Shown here piece by piece: positions 7,792 to 24,235 of a stretch of 44,992 bases of DNA. This DNA is from a phage. The notes beneath the pieces are model-generated. The model was not told where the DNA came from. It ran no database searches and saw only the letters and a list, made by a program, of their open reading frames with translations. Every line of letters begins with the position of its first letter. The stretch's first letter is position 1. The DNA is taken from sequence record NC_110914.1; one strand, given 5' to 3'. The translations under genes and the position numbers were made by a program.

Positions 7792-9153
7792 ATGTTTGAT
7801 AATTTAACCGATCGTTTGTCGCGCACGCTGCGCAATATCAGTGGCCGTGGACGCCTCACTGAAGACAACGTAAAAGATACGCTGCGCGAAGTGCGCATGG
7901 CGCTGCTGGAGGCGGACGTCGCTCTGCCGGTAGTGCGTGAGTTTATCAATCGCGTAAAAGAGAAAGCGGTTGGTCATGAAGTTAATAAGAGCCTGACGCC
8001 GGGGCAGGAGTTCGTCAAAATCGTCCGTAACGAACTGGTTGCGGCGATGGGCGAAGAGAACCAGACCCTGAACCTGGCTGCGCAACCGCCTGCGGTCGTG
8101 CTGATGGCAGGCCTGCAAGGTGCCGGTAAAACAACCAGCGTTGGTAAACTCGGTAAGTTCCTGCGCGAGAAGCACAAGAAGAAAGTGCTGGTGGTTTCTG
8201 CCGACGTCTATCGCCCGGCGGCAATCAAACAGCTTGAGACGCTGGCTGAGCAGGTGGGCGTTGATTTCTTCCCTTCTGATGTTGGTCAGAAGCCGGTTGA
8301 TATTGTTAACGCGGCGTTGAAAGAAGCCAAACTGAAATTCTACGACGTGCTGCTGGTGGATACCGCTGGTCGTCTGCACGTTGACGAAGCGATGATGGAC
8401 GAGATCAAACAAGTCCATGCGTCGATTAACCCGGTTGAAACCCTGTTTGTGGTTGACGCCATGACCGGTCAGGATGCGGCCAATACGGCAAAAGCATTTA
8501 ATGAAGCGTTACCGCTTACCGGCGTAGTGTTGACCAAAGTGGACGGCGATGCCCGCGGCGGTGCGGCGCTCTCTATTCGTCACATCACTGGCAAACCGAT
8601 CAAGTTCCTCGGTGTTGGCGAGAAAACTGAGGCGCTGGAGCCGTTCCATCCGGACCGCATCGCGTCGCGTATTCTCGGCATGGGCGACGTACTGTCGCTG
8701 ATCGAAGATATCGAAAGCAAAGTTGACCGCGCGCAGGCAGAGAAATTAGCCAGCAAGCTGAAAAAAGGCGACGGCTTCGATCTCAACGACTTCCTTGAGC
8801 AGCTGCGGCAGATGAAAAATATGGGCGGCATGGCCAGCTTGATGGGCAAACTGCCGGGCATGGGGCAGATCCCGGATAACGTCAAGTCGCAGATGGACGA
8901 TAAAGTGCTGGTGCGTATGGAAGCCATCATCAACTCAATGACGATGAAAGAGCGCGCTAAGCCAGAAATCATCAAAGGTTCACGTAAGCGTCGTATCGCC
9001 GCCGGTTGCGGGATGCAGGTACAGGACGTTAACCGCCTTCTGAAGCAGTTCGACGACATGCAGCGCATGATGAAGAAAATGAAGAAGGGCGGAATGGCGA
9101 AGATGATGAGAAGCATGAAAGGGATGATGCCGCCGGGATTTCCTGGTCGCTAA
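7792..9153 (+). CDS. ffh: Signal recognition particle protein Ffh
   Basis: 453-aa ORF; GTPase motifs (GLQGAGKTT, DTAGR) and Met-rich C-terminal M domain. Confidence 0.95.
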   Translation: MFDNLTDRLSRTLRNISGRGRLTEDNVKDTLREVRMALLEADVALPVVREFINRVKEKAVGHEVNKSLTPGQEFVKIVRNELVAAMGEENQTLNLAAQPPAVVLMAGLQGAGKTTSVGKLGKFLREKHKKKVLVVSADVYRPAAIKQLETLAEQVGVDFFPSDVGQKPVDIVNAALKEAKLKFYDVLLVDTAGRLHVDEAMMDEIKQVHASINPVETLFVVDAMTGQDAANTAKAFNEALPLTGVVLTKVDGDARGGAALSIRHITGKPIKFLGVGEKTEALEPFHPDRIASRILGMGDVLSLIEDIESKVDRAQAEKLASKLKKGDGFDLNDFLEQLRQMKNMGGMASLMGKLPGMGQIPDNVKSQMDDKVLVRMEAIINSMTMKERAKPEIIKGSRKRRIAAGCGMQVQDVNRLLKQFDDMQRMMKKMKKGGMAKMMRSMKGMMPPGFPGR

Positions 9154-11841: not shown

Positions 11842-13011
11842 TTATATTTCGCTTTCCTCTGAGCTGTACTCTATATCAGATAGCTTAACCTCAAGCTCTA
11901 ACCCCGTCGTGAAGCCACTATTATTCAGAATGTGAGTTACTTTACTGATTAACCATACCTGTTCGTCTATTACGCGCTTAAAGCCCGACACACGTACAGG
12001 CGTCTCAGGAAATAAATCCGCTCGCCCTAGCGCCAGTGTGATTGAAAACTCCGCAACGCCTCGCTGCAGTTTATCCCACTTAGCCTGAGCGGCACGCATC
12101 GCCTGCGCCTTTGATGCGTAGACCGTTGTCAGCGCCAGCACGTTATCGGCTTCACCGGCCATATACTCACCCTCGCGAGCCTCCTGCTCTTTTTTGGCCT
12201 TTGTCTTTTTGCTGACAGGCTTTGCTTTCGGGTGCTCCAGTGCGCGTAGGTGTTTCTCTTTTGGCTGGCGTTTCAGCGTCACTTTTTGCTTTTGCGGCTT
12301 CGGGTCTTTGGTGTGCAACCATTTTGCCGTTACGCCGGTATAAGCCCCACGGTCGGCAATAGCAAATTGATGACGGTCACCATTGCTACGGGGCAGCGTC
12401 ATTTGCGGGATGGGTCTGCCGCTGGCCGTCATCGCACTACCGGCTTTCAGAAACAGCAATTTCCCCGCTTTCACTGACACCGCAGCTCCGTTTCGGTCAG
12501 CTAGCCGGGTCAGAAACACCGCGTCGGACTCCTGCGACTGGTCGATATGCGGTACCGGGATTTTTTTCAGTGAATCAGCGACACTGGCCGTCAGTTTATT
12601 GCGTTTTGCGATGGTGCTGACCAGTTCTCCGATGGTGGTGTCATGCCATGACTCTTCACGCCTGGAATTTAGCGTGCCGCGAAAGTCCGCGCTGCGCGCC
12701 CGGATGGTCAGGGTGTCAGGCGCTCCCCGGTGCTCAATCTCATCGACCGTAAAATCCCCCTTATTCAGCAACGCCGAGCCCTGCCAGCCAAGCCACAGCG
12801 TCAGCACTGCCCCGCGCAGGGGTAACTCAACTTTCCCGTCGGTATCATCAAGCTCAATATCGAGCTGGTCAGCCTCAAAACCCCGGTTATCGGTCATGGT
12901 GAGAGAAATCAATCGGTCACTAAAATTGCTGGTAATGTCCTGGCTGTTCAGCGTCAACATAAATGCCGGTGCAAGGCTGGCACCGGCGTCAATTGCCATC
13001 CCCGTTATCAT
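11842..13011 (-). CDS. D: Tail protein gpD (late control D)
   Basis: 389-aa ORF at the P2 gpD position; size and order match D-U-T-E-FII-FI. Confidence 0.85.
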   Translation of the reverse strand: MITGMAIDAGASLAPAFMLTLNSQDITSNFSDRLISLTMTDNRGFEADQLDIELDDTDGKVELPLRGAVLTLWLGWQGSALLNKGDFTVDEIEHRGAPDTLTIRARSADFRGTLNSRREESWHDTTIGELVSTIAKRNKLTASVADSLKKIPVPHIDQSQESDAVFLTRLADRNGAAVSVKAGKLLFLKAGSAMTASGRPIPQMTLPRSNGDRHQFAIADRGAYTGVTAKWLHTKDPKPQKQKVTLKRQPKEKHLRALEHPKAKPVSKKTKAKKEQEAREGEYMAGEADNVLALTTVYASKAQAMRAAQAKWDKLQRGVAEFSITLALGRADLFPETPVRVSGFKRVIDEQVWLISKVTHILNNSGFTTGLELEVKLSDIEYSSEESEI

Positions 13012-13493
13012 GCAGTGAAACCTCCGGGCATACCCTGCAGTTTATCTGTCAAATTACCGGCAGAGCCGAGAAGCTCACTGGCCTGTTTATTCAGGTCACC
13101 AAACATCTCTGTCAGCGATTCATCAACCCGTTTTAGCGAAAGCGTGAAATCAATCTTTCTGGCCGCACCATCACTGAAAAACTCGGTGCGTGTAGTCGAT
13201 ACTTTATCGACGATATACATCCCGAGGATATTTCCGGTTCCCTCTATCAACGGCCACGCTCTGCCTTCATTGGCCATCACCTCTACAGCCTTTAGTGAGA
13301 TCCAACCGCCAGTGATAGCGGGGTATAGCGTACCAGCAAGCTGTATAGAGGTTTCCCCCTCGCCAAGAAACTGATAGGCAGGTGGTTTACCCACCCGGTC
13401 ATTGGACACCCAGCGATAATCTTTCGAATGCTGCATCGACTGGTAAGGCAGGGTGCGAAGTTCAAACACAAACATTCCGAGAGCAAGCATCAT
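13008..13493 (-). CDS. U: Tail protein gpU
   Basis: 161-aa ORF overlapping D by 4 nt; P2 gpU-like by position and size. Confidence 0.8.
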   Translation of the reverse strand: MMLALGMFVFELRTLPYQSMQHSKDYRWVSNDRVGKPPAYQFLGEGETSIQLAGTLYPAITGGWISLKAVEVMANEGRAWPLIEGTGNILGMYIVDKVSTTRTEFFSDGAARKIDFTLSLKRVDESLTEMFGDLNKQASELLGSAGNLTDKLQGMPGGFTA

Positions 13494-13506
13494 CGTTTAA
13501 TCCCCC

Positions 13507-15951
13507 TCAATAGTCGTGGGTCATGTTGGCACGCTGGCGGGCGCGTTTATCGCGCTCAATCTGTTCGAGCGTGTCGCGTAGTTGTCTGTCAAGCTGATGC
13601 CCCGGCGCAACACCTCCCGGCAGATTGATGTTGTATTCGCTTTTGCTCTGGTCAATGTAAGAGCGCCCCGCCGGTGCGGTAACTGGCTGATAAGCCTGAT
13701 AGCCGCCATATGTGCTGGTTGCCGGGATGTAGGAATTACCCTGTGTGGCGGCATTGGTTTTGGCGGCGGTCTGGTCGAGGCTGTCCGACTCTTTGTTGAT
13801 GATGCCGAGCTTTTCGAGAAGCCAGTCGACACCGCTGCGCAGCTTGTTAAAAACATTGAGCGGAGCCATCAAGGCAGAGGCCAGTGCCTGACCAAATATG
13901 ACGCCGACATTTTTGCAGCTATCAAGCGTTTCCTGTGTGGCCTTAACCGGTGCTATCAGGTCTTTAAACCACTGCCAGACGCCGCGCAGTTTCTCGCCGA
14001 GACCATCAAAAATGGGAGCCAGTGGAGCTAACATTTCCCCGACTGGGGCAAAGGCACTCATGATGCCTTCAATCACTCCCGAGAAAAATGCGCTGATGGG
14101 CTCCCAATATTTACGGATGAGTAGCGCCCCCGCCACAATCGCCGCACCGACGGCCACTATCGGCCAGGTAATCGCACCGAGCGCTGTCGCAATGGCACTA
14201 CCGACGACAGTAAAGACCGTACCCAGCACGCCAGCAGCGGCGATAATTGCATTAATCCCCATGACAACCGGCCACGCAACGAGACCAATGCCGCCGATGA
14301 TACCAATCAGCGCCAGCGCACCACCGGCGATGATGCCGATAGTTTCCGCTAACTCCTTGTTGTCTTTGATCCAGTCATCAAGCTTTAGCACATACCGTGT
14401 TGCTGTCTGAGTTAGCTGACGCAATGAGCTATCTTGCTGGTCATAGAGGTCAGTGCCGACCGCCTCATATGCTGACTGGAACTCCTTGAAGTCGCCGCCG
14501 AGGTTATCCTGCATAACCTTGACCAGCTCCTCTGTTTTACCGTCTGAATCCTTTATCGTGGCAGTTAGCTTATCGAGTTTTCCGCTTGCCGCTGCCGCCA
14601 TAAGGACACTTGCAGACTTCATAGCCTCCTCGCCGAATATCGTTTTCACGTACTCGGCCTTTTGTGAGGTACCAAGATTGTTGCGCTTAAAACTGGCCTG
14701 CATTTCTTTCAGGATGGTAAATAGCGGGCGCGTATTGCCTTTGCTGTCTGAGGTTTTAACTCCCAGCTCTTTGAGAGCATCGTATGCTTTGCCTGTGGGT
14801 GCCTGTAGTCTCGTTATAACAGCAGCGCCGCCAGTCCCAGCCATTGACCCCCTGATGTTATTATCATGAAGTGTGCCGGTAATCGCCGCCGCCTGTTCAA
14901 GACTCACCCCAGCATTTTTCGCAACAGGGGCAAGGTAACTTAATGAGTCACTTAGTCCCTGAAAATCAGCGGTGGTTTTGTTCATCGTGGTTGAAAGAAC
15001 ATCACCGATATGCGCAGCCGCGTCATTAGAAAGTTGAAAGGCGGCTTTTGTCCCCATCAACAGTTGCGCGTTTTCCTCCATTGTTTTTTTGTTTGCAAGC
15101 GACAGGTTGAGAGTCACAGGTGTCATGGCCGCTATAGCCGCCGCATCACCACCACCTTTTGCAATGATAATCTGCGCACTGGCTGCATCATCAGCAGAAG
15201 CGGCTGTATTGTCACCGAGCTGGCGCGCCTGTTTGCGTAACGCCTGCATTTCTGGCGACTGCTTATCGACCCCGAGCACAGCCTGCAGCTCGGAGTTTTT
15301 TTGCGCAAAGTCATAACCGGGCATCAGCAATTTAACCCCGGCCATCGTTCCCGCTGTCGCAATACCGACCCCGGCAGCACCTGCAGCGGCCATGTTACCG
15401 GCAAGCTCCTTACCCGATTTATATCGCTCTTTCACTCGGTTTAGGTGCGCCTGCTGTGCGCTGACCTTCGCCAATGCTTCACGCTGCCGGTTGAGCTGCG
15501 CCGTCGTCTCGCTGATACGTGTTTTAAGCCCCCGCTCATCGTTTGCCAGATTGCGGGTATTGATACCGGCGGCACCCAGCTCGCGTTGCTGGCGTTTAAC
15601 CGACTCGGTGAGGCTGTTGTATTTAACCTGCAGCCCCTCGGCGGCACGTTTTGCGGATTCGAGCACCTGTGCCTGCGCTCGCGTCGGGCGCTCAGTATTT
15701 TTGAATTGCGTGGCAAGCGCTTCAGCCTCGCGCTTTGCCTTCTCCAGCGACTGGCCGGTTACGGCCAGTTGAGCGCTGGTTTTGCGAAAGCCGTCGATTT
15801 TCGCGGCCTGCCCGTTCAGGTCACGCAGCCCTTTTTGTGTGTCGCGAATATCGCCCGACAGGGTTTTACTCGCGGTCTGGATGGATTTAAGCGGTCGGGT
15901 CGCCTGGTCGACCGCTTTCAGCAAAACCTCAAGTCTCAGGTTATTACTCAT
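13507..15951 (-). CDS. T: Tail tape measure protein gpT
   Basis: 814-aa ORF, Ala/Gly-rich with coiled-coil and internal TM-like segment, at the P2 gpT position. Confidence 0.9.
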   Translation of the reverse strand: MSNNLRLEVLLKAVDQATRPLKSIQTASKTLSGDIRDTQKGLRDLNGQAAKIDGFRKTSAQLAVTGQSLEKAKREAEALATQFKNTERPTRAQAQVLESAKRAAEGLQVKYNSLTESVKRQQRELGAAGINTRNLANDERGLKTRISETTAQLNRQREALAKVSAQQAHLNRVKERYKSGKELAGNMAAAGAAGVGIATAGTMAGVKLLMPGYDFAQKNSELQAVLGVDKQSPEMQALRKQARQLGDNTAASADDAASAQIIIAKGGGDAAAIAAMTPVTLNLSLANKKTMEENAQLLMGTKAAFQLSNDAAAHIGDVLSTTMNKTTADFQGLSDSLSYLAPVAKNAGVSLEQAAAITGTLHDNNIRGSMAGTGGAAVITRLQAPTGKAYDALKELGVKTSDSKGNTRPLFTILKEMQASFKRNNLGTSQKAEYVKTIFGEEAMKSASVLMAAAASGKLDKLTATIKDSDGKTEELVKVMQDNLGGDFKEFQSAYEAVGTDLYDQQDSSLRQLTQTATRYVLKLDDWIKDNKELAETIGIIAGGALALIGIIGGIGLVAWPVVMGINAIIAAAGVLGTVFTVVGSAIATALGAITWPIVAVGAAIVAGALLIRKYWEPISAFFSGVIEGIMSAFAPVGEMLAPLAPIFDGLGEKLRGVWQWFKDLIAPVKATQETLDSCKNVGVIFGQALASALMAPLNVFNKLRSGVDWLLEKLGIINKESDSLDQTAAKTNAATQGNSYIPATSTYGGYQAYQPVTAPAGRSYIDQSKSEYNINLPGGVAPGHQLDRQLRDTLEQIERDKRARQRANMTHDY

Positions 15952-16431
15952 TGTGGTGTCCGCTACGCTGCAGCGCCTTTTCGCGCCATGTGATGAGCTC
16001 GGTCAGGCTCAGGGAATAGAGATCTGATAGCGGCCAGTGGAATATCACCGCGATATCCGCCATCAGGTCATCGGTCGACAGGTCGGGCGGGAAATCTACT
16101 CCGCCGAAGCCGGTGACAAAAAACCAATCACCTTAGCGGCCAACGACAGCATATCGGGCAGGTTCATTGCGGTAAGCTCCTGCGCCGTAAGCGCGGGGTA
16201 GGTCATGCGTGGCAATACCTTAATCAGCGCATCGACTTCGGACTGCGCCACCGCTGCCAGACTGACACCGCGCAGGGTACCGGCGTTCGGCTCAATCAGT
16301 GTGACTTTATCAATCGTCTGACCGGCGCGCTTAATCGGCTTGTCGAGGGTCACGACGTTCGGGTTTACGGTGTCAATTTCATTGCCAGCCATATCAACAA
16401 ATTCAGCGGTTTTACGTGGTGCTTTTGCCAT
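15944..16431 (-). CDS. E: Tail assembly chaperone gpE and frameshift product gpE+E'
   Basis: gpE ORF 16096..16431 (111 aa). Slippery TTTTTTG (about 16117..16123, minus strand) allows a -1 shift; the -1 frame hand-translates to ...VDFPPDLSTDDLMADIAVIFHWPLSDLYSLSLTELITWREKALQRSGHHNE, ending just before the T start. Confidence 0.8.
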
Positions 16432-18237: not shown

Positions 18238-18552
18238 TTATTGTCCTGGCTGGTCTGTTGAGGGGCTATTTGTCAGTGTTGGGCGATGTCTGACACATTG
18301 AGACATCAGCAACGGATGCGGGAAATTGTTTGTATAGCGTTGAGATACCCGAGGCGATCCAGTTTCCAGACCACAAGCGTATCGCCCTCTGACAAGGTTC
18401 TGAGTAACCTCTTTAGCCCCGGCCAGTCTGATTGATGTTTTGCCGCTGATTTTATCTTCGAAAATCAGCTCACATCCTGCGCACTCCAGTTCATTTCGCT
18501 GTAATGCGGTGTTCTGGTCATTTGTTGATACACGTACATAACCGATAAACAT
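18238..18552 (-). pseudogene. Hin/Gin/Pin-family serine DNA invertase remnant (frameshifted and 3'-truncated)
   Basis: Minus-strand translation gives MFIGYVRVSTNDQNTALQRNELECAGCELIFEDKISGK (catalytic Ser motif); the conserved GDTLVVWKLDRLG block is only in another frame, and the rest of the ~190-aa protein is absent before FI. Confidence 0.75.
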
Positions 18553-18618
18553 GAGAAATAACCCGGTAAAAAGTCGGAAACATGCCAGCTGAACGGAATA
18601 TCTGCATTTTCTAAAAGG

Positions 18619-18644
18619 TTGGTTTGGGAGAAGCGGCAAAACGG
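18619..18644. repeat. Left inverted repeat / crossover site of the invertible tail-fibre segment
   Basis: ttggtttgggagaagcGgcAaaacgg is the reverse complement of 20138..20163 with 2 mismatches. Confidence 0.7.
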
Positions 18645-18986
18645 AATGTAGGTAACGGGCAAAACCAAATTCCGGATATGGCGGCGTTTGCCAGTTCACT
18701 TTCATCAACGGGTTTTCAAAAACTCCCTTCAGGTCTGATTATTCAGTGGGGTATTGTCAGTGGAGCATCAAACTATACGGTGACTTACCCGGTAACATTC
18801 CCAAATCGTTCACTTGCGCTGTTGGCTGTGCCACATACAACGTCGGTGGCTGGTATATCTGCAATGGGCATAGCGAACTGTTCTGATATCAGCAAATCAC
18901 AGTTCTATATAATTGTTGGCGGTATATCTCAGGGAGAAATTGTCAAATATGAAAGGTCCTGTTTTTGGGTAGCAATCGGTGTATAG
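18624..18986 (+). CDS. Alternative (silent) tail-fibre C-terminal cassette Sv'
   Basis: Translation GEAAKRNVGNGQNQIPDMAAFASSLSSTGFQKLPSGLIIQWG... parallels the active H C-terminus; frame opens inside the inverted repeat, no own start. Confidence 0.65.
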   Translation: MGEAAKRNVGNGQNQIPDMAAFASSLSSTGFQKLPSGLIIQWGIVSGASNYTVTYPVTFPNRSLALLAVPHTTSVAGISAMGIANCSDISKSQFYIIVGGISQGEIVKYERSCFWVAIGV

Positions 18987-18994
18987 GTATATCT

Positions 18995-19390
18995 ATGATT
19001 TATTTCTCAAAATCGACTAATGGTTTTTTCTTTGATGGTATAAACAGCGACATGCCTGCTGACATTGTTGAGATAAGTACAGACTTATACAATGAATTAA
19101 TTGCCGGACAGCAGGAAGGGGGGAAATTAATCACGTCAGATGAAAATGGTTTACCGGTACTGAAATCTCCGGCGATTGATTATGTCGCACGTGCGGAAAA
19201 TCAGCGAATGCAGTTACTTGCTCATGCCGATAATGTCACAGCTGACTGGCGAGTGGAATTAATGCTTGGTGATATCAGCAGTACAGATAAAGAAAAACTA
19301 TCCGCCTGGATGAACTACAAAAAAGAAGTAAAAGCCGTCGACACTTCGACGGCTCCTGAGATTAGCTGGCCTGAGTTACCGGAGGCGTAG
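18995..19390 (+). CDS. Alternative tail-fibre assembly protein (Tfa')
   Basis: C-terminus ...WMNYKKEVKAVDTSTAPEISWPELPEA resembles the Tfa/gpG family; start trimmed to MIYFSKS...; 3' ends overlap the other tfa. Confidence 0.7.
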   Translation: MIYFSKSTNGFFFDGINSDMPADIVEISTDLYNELIAGQQEGGKLITSDENGLPVLKSPAIDYVARAENQRMQLLAHADNVTADWRVELMLGDISSTDKEKLSAWMNYKKEVKAVDTSTAPEISWPELPEA

Positions 19391-19805
19391 GCCATTCAAT
19401 ATCTGGCGCACTGGAAGTATTGACCTGTTCCAGTGCGTCCAGGTAATCCAGCCACAAATTATATTGCGCCAGTTCGTCACCGTTCAGACGACCAATAGCT
19501 GCTTTACCGGGCCATTGCTTACTGTTCATGTAGTCGTTTGCCTGGTTGATTTTTTTCTGCTTTTCGGCGTTCGCAGCTTCCACTTCTTCATCGTGACTTA
19601 ACGGTGGTAAATCCACCCATACAGGCTGCCCATTTTCATCAGCGCCGCGGGTTTGCCCTTCTGGTGGCATTCCTGAATATGTGAGAAAAACGTCATCAGA
19701 AACACCTACTAAGTCATCTGGCCAGGTGTTGGCTGCTATGTACAGCGACTTCATTTCTTCAGGGTAAAAACCTAGAGTTGATGGAGAAAAATAATAAAGA
19801 GTCAT
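19362..19805 (-). CDS. G: Tail-fibre assembly protein (gpG-like Tfa), active orientation
   Basis: 147-aa ORF immediately downstream of H; C-terminus ...LEQVNTSSAPDIEWPTPP typical of Tfa. Confidence 0.8.
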   Translation of the reverse strand: MTLYYFSPSTLGFYPEEMKSLYIAANTWPDDLVGVSDDVFLTYSGMPPEGQTRGADENGQPVWVDLPPLSHDEEVEAANAEKQKKINQANDYMNSKQWPGKAAIGRLNGDELAQYNLWLDYLDALEQVNTSSAPDIEWPTPPVTQAS

Positions 19806-19806
19806 A

Positions 19807-20769
19807 TCAGCTTCCTATTGCGAACCAGCGAAAGACATAAACCCCAGATGTTGCATCACAGCGCATCAGGAAATTTGTTTTTGTAAAACTTCCTGCCGCT
19901 CCCGCAATAACCTTTCCACCACCATTGTCGTAAGAGACTACAACCTGATGGCAAATGTTCGGAAAAGAAACCGAGAAGTTAATTGCATTTCCCGTATTAC
20001 CTGTCGCACCCACTCCGGCTGTTGCTGATCCCCATTGAATGATTAAGCCGCTAGGTAGTTTTTGATATCCAGCAGCACCCGTTACAGACAAAAATGAATT
20101 TATATCTGGAATCTGGTTTTCCCCTGTTCCGACATCCCGTTTCGCTGCTTCTCCCAAACCAAGGTTTTTAAGAACGTCGCCGGCCAGTCCCGCGTCAACC
20201 ATTTCTTTCAGAGCATTAGCGATTAACGGGTACTGCTTGTGTGGATTGGCGGCCTCAACATGTTTTTTCATCAGGTCATCAGCATATCCTTTCACCTCGA
20301 TAATCTTGTCGTCGACATACTGGCGCGTTGCCAGCACGACTGCCGGGTCGATTTTCAGGGTGATTGCCGATGTGCTCGACACAATCAGAATCATGCGAAT
20401 GGTCTGCGTGCGACCGCTTCCCTCCTGCAGTTGTGGCTTGTAGGTCTCCGGACAGTTCGCCACGGCAATCAGAATACCATCATCGTCATAGAGACCAATC
20501 TCGCGGATCCAGAAACCACCTTCATTCTCGGGAATAATCTGTTCCGCGATAATCTGACTGGTATTGGCCGGGTCAACGGTCAGCAGGTTCAGCGGCGCGA
20601 TGCGTTTCTGGTTAATGAGCTTCGTCTGCGCCGGGTCAGGGGTCGGCAACGTACCATTCGCATCACCGACGGCCATCTGCGTCAGGTTGAGTTTGGTACC
20701 GAGTGCCGCCGCGTTCGCCAGCCGCGCCGCGCCCTGATTGGTCAGAATGGCAAAATATTTTGCGGTCAT
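19807..20769 (-). CDS. H: Tail fibre protein gpH (short variant)
   Basis: 320-aa ORF with P2 gpH-like N-terminal region (MTAKYFAILTNQGAARLANA...) and a variable C-terminus inside the invertible segment. Confidence 0.85.
   Translation of the reverse strand: MTAKYFAILTNQGAARLANAAALGTKLNLTQMAVGDANGTLPTPDPAQTKLINQKRIAPLNLLTVDPANTSQIIAEQIIPENEGGFWIREIGLYDDDGILIAVANCPETYKPQLQEGSGRTQTIRMILIVSSTSAITLKIDPAVVLATRQYVDDKIIEVKGYADDLMKKHVEAANPHKQYPLIANALKEMVDAGLAGDVLKNLGLGEAAKRDVGTGENQIPDINSFLSVTGAAGYQKLPSGLIIQWGSATAGVGATGNTGNAINFSVSFPNICHQVVVSYDNGGGKVIAGAAGSFTKTNFLMRCDATSGVYVFRWFAIGS
20138..20163. repeat. Right inverted repeat / crossover site of the invertible segment
   Basis: Reverse complement of the left repeat; adjacent near-palindrome aaaaaccttggttt resembles hix/gix-type sites. 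Confidence 0.7.
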
Positions 20770-23267: not shown

Positions 23268-23398
23268 AGAATGCCGATTGTTAAAGCCAAGAGCAAAACG
23301 ATTCAGCTGTATGCTCTTCTACACAATTCGGTGTGCATTCATGTATCATTTGAGTGTTGACTCATTCGAAAATCACACAAAACATATGGCAGGTAGTA

Positions 23399-24235
23399 AT
23401 GAAAAGAACTTCATCTTTTAGGCGTACAATAAGCAATATGAAATATATTATAGGTATCTTTTTTTTATACTCCGGGCTTATAGTAGGGTTGTCTGTTTAT
23501 AATGATAACTACAACTCAAAATTCATGGAGAATTTTCTTGTTAATGCAAATTCTTCAATTTTAGACTTTCTTGTTTTGGGTGTGATTCTTTACTATTTTG
23601 AAAATAAAAGGCAAAATAAAGATGCTATTCACGAACTAATTGAAGATCTTGAAAATCTGGCAAAGCATTCTTCTGCAGAACTGAATATTATGAAGATAAA
23701 AATCATACGTCAGTTAAATGCTAAAGGAATATATAACATTCAAGTTCCAAGGATTGAACTTGATAAAATGTCCACTATCAAATATTTACATTTTAAAGAC
23801 GCTGACTTAACCGGCTTGAATATGAGCGAATCATACATTAGAGATTGTTCTTTCGATAATTGCACAATTCAAGCTCTAAATATTACAGGCAATAGAGTTA
23901 AGAGTGTTAAATTCAAAAACTGCAAGCTAAGAAATATTAAGGCATTTAATACATGTTTTCAAAATGTCACTTTCGAAAACTGCAGTTTTGAAGGGGGGTA
24001 TTTTACAGATAGCGAAATGAAAAGCTGCATATTAAAAGGATGTGATTTTAAATCCGTTACTTATGAAGGGGCTAACATGCGGAATGCAAATCTATTAAAT
24101 TCAATTAACATTAGCGTTAAAGAACTTGTTAAAGCAAAAAACATAGATTATTTAATTTGTGATGAGCAAATTAAAAATGAAATAAGAAAGGAAAACCCAG
24201 CAATAAAAATATCGAGAGGAATAATACGAGGTTAG
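23399..24235 (+). CDS. Membrane-anchored pentapeptide-repeat protein (cargo gene between V and S)
   Basis: AT-rich ORF opposite to flanking late genes. N-terminal hydrophobic segments (YIIGIFFLYSGLIVGLSVY; LDFLVLGVILYYF), then pentapeptide-like repeats (CSFDNCTIQALNITGNRVKSVKFKNCKLRNIKAFNTCFQNVTFENCSFEGGYF...). ORF track starts at GTG 23354; an ATG at about 23399 (MKRTSSFRR...) is more plausible. Confidence 0.6.
   Translation: MKRTSSFRRTISNMKYIIGIFFLYSGLIVGLSVYNDNYNSKFMENFLVNANSSILDFLVLGVILYYFENKRQNKDAIHELIEDLENLAKHSSAELNIMKIKIIRQLNAKGIYNIQVPRIELDKMSTIKYLHFKDADLTGLNMSESYIRDCSFDNCTIQALNITGNRVKSVKFKNCKLRNIKAFNTCFQNVTFENCSFEGGYFTDSEMKSCILKGCDFKSVTYEGANMRNANLLNSINISVKELVKAKNIDYLICDEQIKNEIRKENPAIKISRGIIRG

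Follow-up and report, generated by a model that had tools for sequence, protein, structure and literature searches.

The window, by which we mean the whole stretch of 44,992 nucleotides analysed here (phage sequence record NC_110914.1; its strain is Escherichia coli 222), carries a P2-like prophage in which the C-terminal part of the tail-fibre protein H and its chaperone lie on an invertible segment, next to the remains of a serine invertase gene. We consider it likely that this is a switch of the Din type whose own invertase is dead while its DNA is still a working substrate, and which is flipped in trans. An earlier note on the window had described the region as a host-range switch resembling the G segment of phage Mu, and had judged it probably locked in one orientation. 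The description is borne out by the sites, the two cassettes and the chaperones found in the P2-like prophage. The locking finds no support at the level of the lineage, where an identical pseudogene accompanies both orientations among sisters that differ by 0-2 single-nucleotide polymorphisms (SNPs) over 37-38 kb.

These sister genomes carry the argument. The switch region with its surroundings (3 kb) is 100% identical in the chromosomes of E. coli 222, 103 (Boston) and 5283 (Houston). Over 38,640 nt, strain 2779 (Houston), which has an identical pseudogene, departs from the window only at two SNPs, at positions 23 and 8632, and in having 18621-20160 as the exact reverse complement. Strain 98210 (Alexandria) shows no SNP over 36,952 nt outside the segment, has the orientation opposite to that of the window and matches 2779 within the segment. 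Strain 5283, in turn, has the window orientation, yet at 8632 it carries the derived ffh allele (Ala281Thr) that is also present in 2779. All four combinations of the ffh SNP and orientation exist, which means that at least two flips have taken place since the invertase deletion. The point at which identity switches in 2779 falls within TTGGTTTGGGAGAAGC, which is made up of the central TT/AA and the inner half-site. Here the repeats are identical over at most 16 nt in a row, and the exchange is confined to a core of 15-16 bp with the central dinucleotide, both here and in a second, hospital clone described below. As a comparison between genomes, the segment inverts with exchange at the central dinucleotide. 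The earlier note had hedged that the segment may be frozen as long as no invertase is supplied in trans, which is compatible with these findings; locking in itself is not supported, both orientations being present in sisters.

The adjacent invertase gene is dead: there is no intact serine invertase of ~190 aa with catalytic domain, E-helix and helix-turn-helix (HTH) beside the segment. What is kept are codons 1 to ~68 plus the last 27 codons, as seen by tblastn with the invertase of phage Cartapus and by alignments to the genes of E. coli 30EVA2, Cartapus and the E. coli E7 prophage. A 4-nt insertion at ~18431-18438, near codon 40, shifts the frame, and a 309-nt internal deletion has left a junction at 18348/18349 that reads KLDRLG / GISTLYKQF. 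Measured from the crossover site, nt 1-290 align with the intact 197-aa invertase of the E7 P2-like prophage (78% identity), after which alignment resumes from nt 600, and the match to PF00239 (Resolvase) is limited to profile positions 2-55 of 145. As the remainder of the catalytic domain is gone, together with the E-helix and the greater part of the HTH, the gene can yield no active enzyme. Frameshift and loss of function had both been recognised in the earlier note, and the alignment with intact P2-like invertases that it proposed confirms the frameshift; its account of a simple C-terminal loss, however, gives way to an internal deletion that spared the end of the gene. A 156-aa open reading frame (ORF; 18238-18708, minus strand) was rejected as a gene, since it continues the start frame of the invertase, upstream through non-coding DNA beyond the crossover site and downstream into the part of the remnant that is out of frame.

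This deletion junction is found as one piece, at ≥97.9% identity, in 35 of 5,426 complete E. coli genomes. The sister lineage of CH423 has a different small indel where the window has its 4-nt insertion, so that the large deletion is ancestral and decay has gone on afterwards. The nearest full-length relatives are 78-89% identical in their N-terminal DNA. The closest of these (89%), the 30EVA2 gene (L006, 2146-2699), is itself annotated as frameshifted, and invertase decay beside tail-fibre switches may be common.

Comparison of assemblies indicates that the segment has also inverted inside an unrelated hospital clone, independently of the window lineage. CH423, CH458 and CH425 are three outbreak-like genomes from an Islamabad hospital, with sizes within 13 bp of each other, which have the same truncated invertase and a different cassette set. 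Between CH425 and the other two, a stretch of 1,865 bp is exactly inverted; its arms have just 15 bp in common. The CH423 segment (L004, 3253-5143) is 93-97% identical to the P segments of e14 (stfP/stfE and tfaP/tfaE, beside pinE). One prophage lineage with one truncated invertase thus carries different sets, one of them e14-like, so that whole invertible cassettes are swapped between e14-like elements and P2-like prophages.

The inverted repeat that flanks the segment in the window (18613-18679 / 20102-20168; 67 nt, 82% identity) holds two 26-bp sites of the Din consensus. They stand in inverted orientation, follow the half-site consensus TTxTCxxAAACC, have identical inner half-sites and an AA/TT core, and the same sites are found in the intact Cartapus and E7 systems. 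The outer half of the left site is less palindromic than that of the right one, as the earlier note had correctly observed. The same imperfection (CGTTTATGAAAA), however, is present in Cartapus and in the E7 prophage of E. coli. Since these two have intact invertases and an equally imperfect proximal site, the imperfection is a family trait and no sign of decay, and the candidate explanation that the left site has decayed, together with the argument for locking built on it, was rejected.

Judged by its coding content, the 1.54-kb segment, when inverted, replaces one Gp53-like receptor-binding tip, together with its chaperone, by the alternative pair. The inverted repeats at the junction between the constant and variable parts of H, the two C-terminal cassettes and the two convergent tfa genes (Table 1) were all described in the earlier note and are all present. 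When 18621-20160 is inverted in silico, a 324-aa H results that is identical to WP_136499904.1, annotated in both 2779 and 98210. The two forms of H have their first 211 residues in common, with the crossover at codon 203, and either orientation gives a complete H of 320 or 324 aa that ends in a Gp53-like C-terminus and has a Caudo_TAP gene downstream. The tips of cassettes A and B are ~40% identical, whereas tfa A and tfa B, which converge and overlap, are 32% identical.

Table 1. Coordinates of the features of the tail-fibre switch in the window
Feature	Position	Strand	Description
Right crossover site	20149..20174	plus	TTCTCCCAAACC AA GGTTTTTAAGAA; central dinucleotide 20161-20162; inversion breakpoint of 2779 and 98210
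Left, invertase-proximal crossover site	18607..18632	minus	TTCTCCCAAACC AA CCTTTTAGAAAA; central dinucleotide 18619-18620
Invertible segment	18621..20160	.	1,540 bp between central dinucleotides; exact reverse complement in 2779, no mismatch
H, whole ORF	19807-20769	minus	320 aa; Phage_tail_fib N-terminus and Gp53-like C-terminus
H, constant N-terminal part	20163..20769	minus	codons 1 to ~202; PF12571 Phage_tail_fib, E=8e-63
Cassette A	19807..20160	minus	variable C-terminus now joined to H; Gp53-like_C, PF21882, E=9e-17
tfa A	19362..19805	minus	tail-fibre assembly chaperone of cassette A; PF02413 Caudo_TAP, E=3e-31; WP_061350397.1
tfa B	18995..19390	plus	chaperone of cassette B; PF02413, E=2e-24; WP_061350398.1
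Cassette B	18621..18986	plus	second C-terminus of H, promoterless and silent in the window orientation; Gp53-like, PF21882, E=1e-14
Putative Fis-dependent recombinational enhancer	18455..18535	minus	in the retained 5' stub; proposed from position and similarity
Serine-invertase pseudogene	18266..18552	minus	ATG at 18552, stop ending at 18266; RefSeq "recombinase family protein, frameshifted"

The stub of the invertase gene may retain one more element of the reaction. In Mu the recombinational enhancer lies within the first codons of the invertase gene, and the enhancers of hin and cin are likewise found in the first invertase codons. In Salmonella the enhancer is ~100 bp from hixL (PMC3798978). 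In the pseudogene of the window the first 40 codons are untouched, and the putative enhancer stretch, which precedes the first lesion, has the same sequence in the CH423 lineage. A Fis-like core, GCGCAGGATGTGAGC at 18468-18482, aligns with GTGCAGGATGTGAAC of Mu, and the distance from the centre of the site to the ATG is ~67 bp, as between gix and gin in Mu. With this geometry, the intact codons and the Fis-like core, the surviving stub would cover the expected cis element.

The mechanism that we favour can be set out as follows. The prophage would have lost its own invertase by frameshift and 309-nt deletion while its sites remained a working substrate, and a serine recombinase from another mobile element would catalyse inversion in trans, using both sites and the Fis-dependent enhancer in the 5' stub of the pseudogene. 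Candidate helpers would be a Din-family invertase, cross-complementation being known within this family, or an enzyme of the PinQ/PinR type; in the window's strain the part might be played by a transient phage or plasmid invertase, by leaky pinQ or by an unrecognised enzyme. Din-family genes are widespread, with a match to a 204-nt query from the invertase N-terminus in 3,634 of the 5,426 E. coli genomes. According to Kirigo et al. 2025 (PMC12529663), the e14 P segment is inverted at TTGGTTTGGGAGAAGG by PinQ as well as by PinR, which is 99% identical to it, and this core is one base off the core of the window, TTGGTTTGGGAGAAGC. Two more enzymes that work on foreign segments are cited there: Fin of Fels-2, with the H segment of Salmonella as its target, and PinE, with Mu G. 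Inversion in a P2-like prophage of E. coli has also been demonstrated experimentally (PMC4272514).

Several points weigh against a helper in trans, and most of them come from the search for it. A distant blastn with the 204-nt N-terminal query against the 5,426 E. coli genomes, in which Mu gin (72% identical) would score ~95 bits with E ~1e-16, matched only the pseudogene on the chromosomes of the eight lineage genomes (222, 103, 5283, 2779, FDAARGOS_1280, 98210, 98192 and 98224), with no second gene of the Din type. Additional places matched by a 491-nt query were rejected as invertases: they vanish when the N-terminus is used alone, which identifies them as matches to the sheath or the tail-fibre junction. 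Further loci were detected by a rise in the number of matching places upon addition of a test gene to the query, a procedure that yields presence and not coordinates. With pinR added to a 3-kb anchor query, each of the eight genomes gained one place, namely pinQ in a Qin-like prophage (2,443,907-2,444,498 in 2779; 2,644,302-2,644,893 in 222). This single pinQ of the lineage, moreover, has one extra G (GGGTGG to GGGGGGG, G7) and is frameshifted at ~codon 101. The G7 allele is identical in 26 genomes, all eight lineage strains among them, while in-frame 591-nt alleles are common elsewhere; as the 26 come from many laboratories, the allele is real and fixed. At the level of reading frames there is thus no intact pinQ or pinR in the same cell in 222 and its seven sisters, and pinR is absent from the tail-fibre end of the Rac-like prophage of 2779. 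The check for a Pin/Hin/Gin homologue suggested in the earlier note therefore yielded no intact chromosomal candidate.

Plasmids add to the same side of the balance. Plasmids 1-3 of 2779, read completely, encode only the tyrosine recombinase Rci (shufflon) and a Tn5403 resolvase, and no Din-type invertase was found on them or in the part read of plasmid 4, the smallest. For 222 and 5283, one plasmid per strain was read over its first 50 kb, with resolvase-type genes only, and the plasmid scan overall turned up no more than Rci, Tn3-family resolvases, a 190-aa resolvase-like protein and truncated tnpR genes. The inventory relies on DNA similarity and RefSeq annotation, and on the plasmid side it is incomplete, extending to these sequences of 2779, 222 and 5283. 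The putative enhancer, too, is assigned by position and similarity, and each assembly gives one consensus orientation, so that flips are seen between genomes and not inside one culture. Finally, in K-12 with pinE deleted, native levels of PinQ and PinR left the P segment unflipped: complete deletion of pinE locks it although pinQ and pinR are present (PMC12529663). Such locking would be expected if the enhancer sits in the 5' end of pinE. With no second Din-type gene and a frameshifted pinQ, flipping in the window's strain is probably rare or episodic.

The hospital clone presents another inventory. CH423 has an intact pinR in a Rac-like prophage and lacks e14 with pinE at icd, and the 204-nt N-terminal search counted one more Din-like place in this clone, as presence without coordinates. 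Two candidates for that place were rejected: the intact pinR, which is too diverged from Din genes, and a pinH-like fragment, which is degenerate and matches too weakly. The latter, a Din-type remnant of 168 nt covering ~residues 40-95 (L020, 40430-40597), is located ~20 kb from the P2-like prophage, with ypjCB on one side and ypjA on the other.

Some further observations concern the genomes in which the search was made. A chromosomal inversion of at least ~200 kb is polymorphic within the clone (~2.44-2.65 Mb, in 222 vs 103 vs 2779), flanked by Qin-like and Rac-like lambdoid prophages with identical J and lom in opposite orientation: pinQ is at 2.644 Mb on the plus strand in 222 and at 2.438 Mb on the minus strand in 103, these genomes being equal in size, and 2779 resembles 103. 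The plasmid pMB9272_3 of 2779 (L016) is a 48.9-kb phage-plasmid with a myovirus tail module and no annotated recombinase, in which, at 12125-16360, a full tail-fibre gene is followed on the same strand by an N-terminally truncated second one and a tfa, an arrangement that may be a remnant of cassette exchange.

How the two orientations came about can be read in other ways. One reading would take the module as maintained in a cis-only state, its invertase reduced to an enhancer stub, and as inverted again and again in a clinical clone of E. coli where no intact invertase can be recognised; we regard this as conceivable but doubtful. Were it true, the recombinase would be one new to Din sites, or pinQ would be rescued via its G7 tract, and prophage host-range switches would commonly be run by a recombinase pool shared across the cell.

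The second of these options amounts to an explanation of its own, in which the enzyme is the pinQ of the lineage and slippage at G7 (transcriptional, translational or by reversible mutation) gives some full-length PinQ and rare flips. In its favour, no relative of an enzyme reported to flip in trans can be recognised in these genomes apart from pinQ, and the lesion of pinQ consists of one surplus G in a homopolymer; the tract, however, is G7 in all 26 genomes with the allele, with no variation in length seen, and the DNA-binding helix of PinQ is unlike that of the Din invertases. Serine invertases also work as tetramers, so that trace amounts should be very inefficient, and in 1984 van de Putte and colleagues reportedly saw no gin-complementing activity in e14-cured K-12. 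On the other hand, there is a report of PinQ causing inversion at the same core in e14 (PMC12529663). On balance we think this explanation rather unlikely.

An improbable alternative is that the segment is frozen in every lysogen, and that the orientations stem from independent lysogenisation, or replacement of the prophage, by a phage population already mixed in orientation, the mixture having arisen earlier in a host with an invertase. The prophage does look complete, no intact invertase candidate was found in the lineage, and the 27 kb of prophage compared contain 0 SNPs against 2 in the 11.5-kb chromosomal flank, as would be the case for a prophage younger than the split of the strains. 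This contrast, however, is not significant (p ~0.09, an estimate), and 222 and 98210 are identical across the whole 37 kb, flank included. An identical phage would need to have been taken up repeatedly at the same site by near-identical hosts despite superinfection immunity, and the difference between CH423/CH458 and CH425, with sizes within 13 bp, would be left unexplained. The phage collection, moreover, contains no isolated phage with this pseudogene.

Inversion could also have proceeded with no site-specific recombinase at all, by RecA-dependent or short-homology (template-switch) recombination, possibly enriched by selection. The exchange maps only to the longest identical run (16 nt; 15 nt in the CH clone), a position that fits a homology-driven event equally well; no invertase candidate was found; and the much larger, prophage-bounded inversion that is polymorphic in the same clone shows that homologous inversion occurs in these genomes. 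We nevertheless hold this to be very improbable given the implied rate, with at least two flips among four haplotypes 0-2 SNPs per 37 kb apart plus the flip in the hospital clone. An identity of 15-16 bp is far below the length at which RecA is efficient, and such events are orders of magnitude rarer. The interval of exchange, besides, is the canonical Din crossover core in two unrelated cassette sets. Lastly, that the differences in orientation are assembly artefacts is scarcely credible, for although inverted repeats can mislead assemblers and each genome gives a consensus only, complete assemblies that are independent of one another (Boston, Houston, Alexandria and Islamabad) show each state repeatedly, with base-exact breakpoints at the expected dinucleotide and H intact in both states.

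Returning to flipping in trans, which we prefer, the switch of the window shares its architecture with Mu G/Gin, P1 C/Cin and e14 P/PinE: two inverted 26-bp sites with the central dinucleotide inside the tail-fibre ORF, alternative C-termini that each have their own tfa-type chaperone in convergent arrangement, and an adjoining invertase gene. It differs from these three systems in that the cognate invertase is a pseudogene and the switch cis-only, and from Mu G also in its dimensions, with a segment of 1.54 kb vs ~3 kb in Mu and an H of only 320/324 aa. The position between H/G and FI is that of the modules in Cartapus, the E7 prophage, the P2-like prophages of enteropathogenic E. coli (EPEC) E2348/69 and, with Fin, Fels-2. 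The intact P2-like modules have the same site sequences, including the imperfect invertase-proximal site, but unlike the window they encode an invertase of 189-197 aa, where here 309 nt are deleted and the frame is shifted. Flipping by a recombinase encoded elsewhere is also the situation of PinQ/PinR on e14 P, Fin on the H segment and PinE on Mu G, although in those cases the helper is known and intact, while here pinQ carries a frameshift and the search turned up no Din-type gene. What is new, then, is not flipping in trans, which was already known, but a tail-fibre switch that lacks its invertase and still flips in a clone with no recognisable helper.

By its gene content the host element is a P2-like (Peduoviridae) prophage. 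Its closest phage matches are Peduoviridae, and it is integrated, otherwise complete, beside rplS. The late genes occupy the minus strand and run V, W, J, I, H, tfa and the switch, followed by FI (sheath), FII (tube), E, T, U, D and ogr; this P2-type late-gene order, with the capsid and terminase genes, is seen both in the ORFs and in the RefSeq annotation of the identical prophage in 2779, 5283 and 98210. The switch segment has a GC content of 43-47%, as against 55-63% in the flanking tail genes. Between the baseplate gene V and the next late gene, on the opposite strand (23354-24235, plus), is a pentapeptide-repeat gene of 293 aa (Pentapeptide_4, E=2e-16) with 28-31% GC, which is kept in all sister prophages; we take its position to be the orf30 moron hotspot of P2.

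Invertible tail-fibre modules determine the host range of phages, and a 2025 report on the e14 element indicates that tail-fibre inversion can also alter the susceptibility of lysogens to other phages. For typing and annotation, it follows from the present comparison that the orientation of the segment is an unstable marker, even among isolates otherwise identical over 37 kb. The clone, with 26 genomes that have the frameshifted pinQ allele and 8 of the 26 carrying the prophage, constitutes a natural test case for trans-acting enzymes of Din sites, as it combines a dead cognate invertase and a dead pinQ with at least two flips, and it is also suited to asking whether the 5' stub of an invertase gene persists for the sake of its enhancer. 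More generally, a switch can outlast its own recombinase and yet stay active, and the annotation of an adjacent pseudogene is no proof that it is locked.

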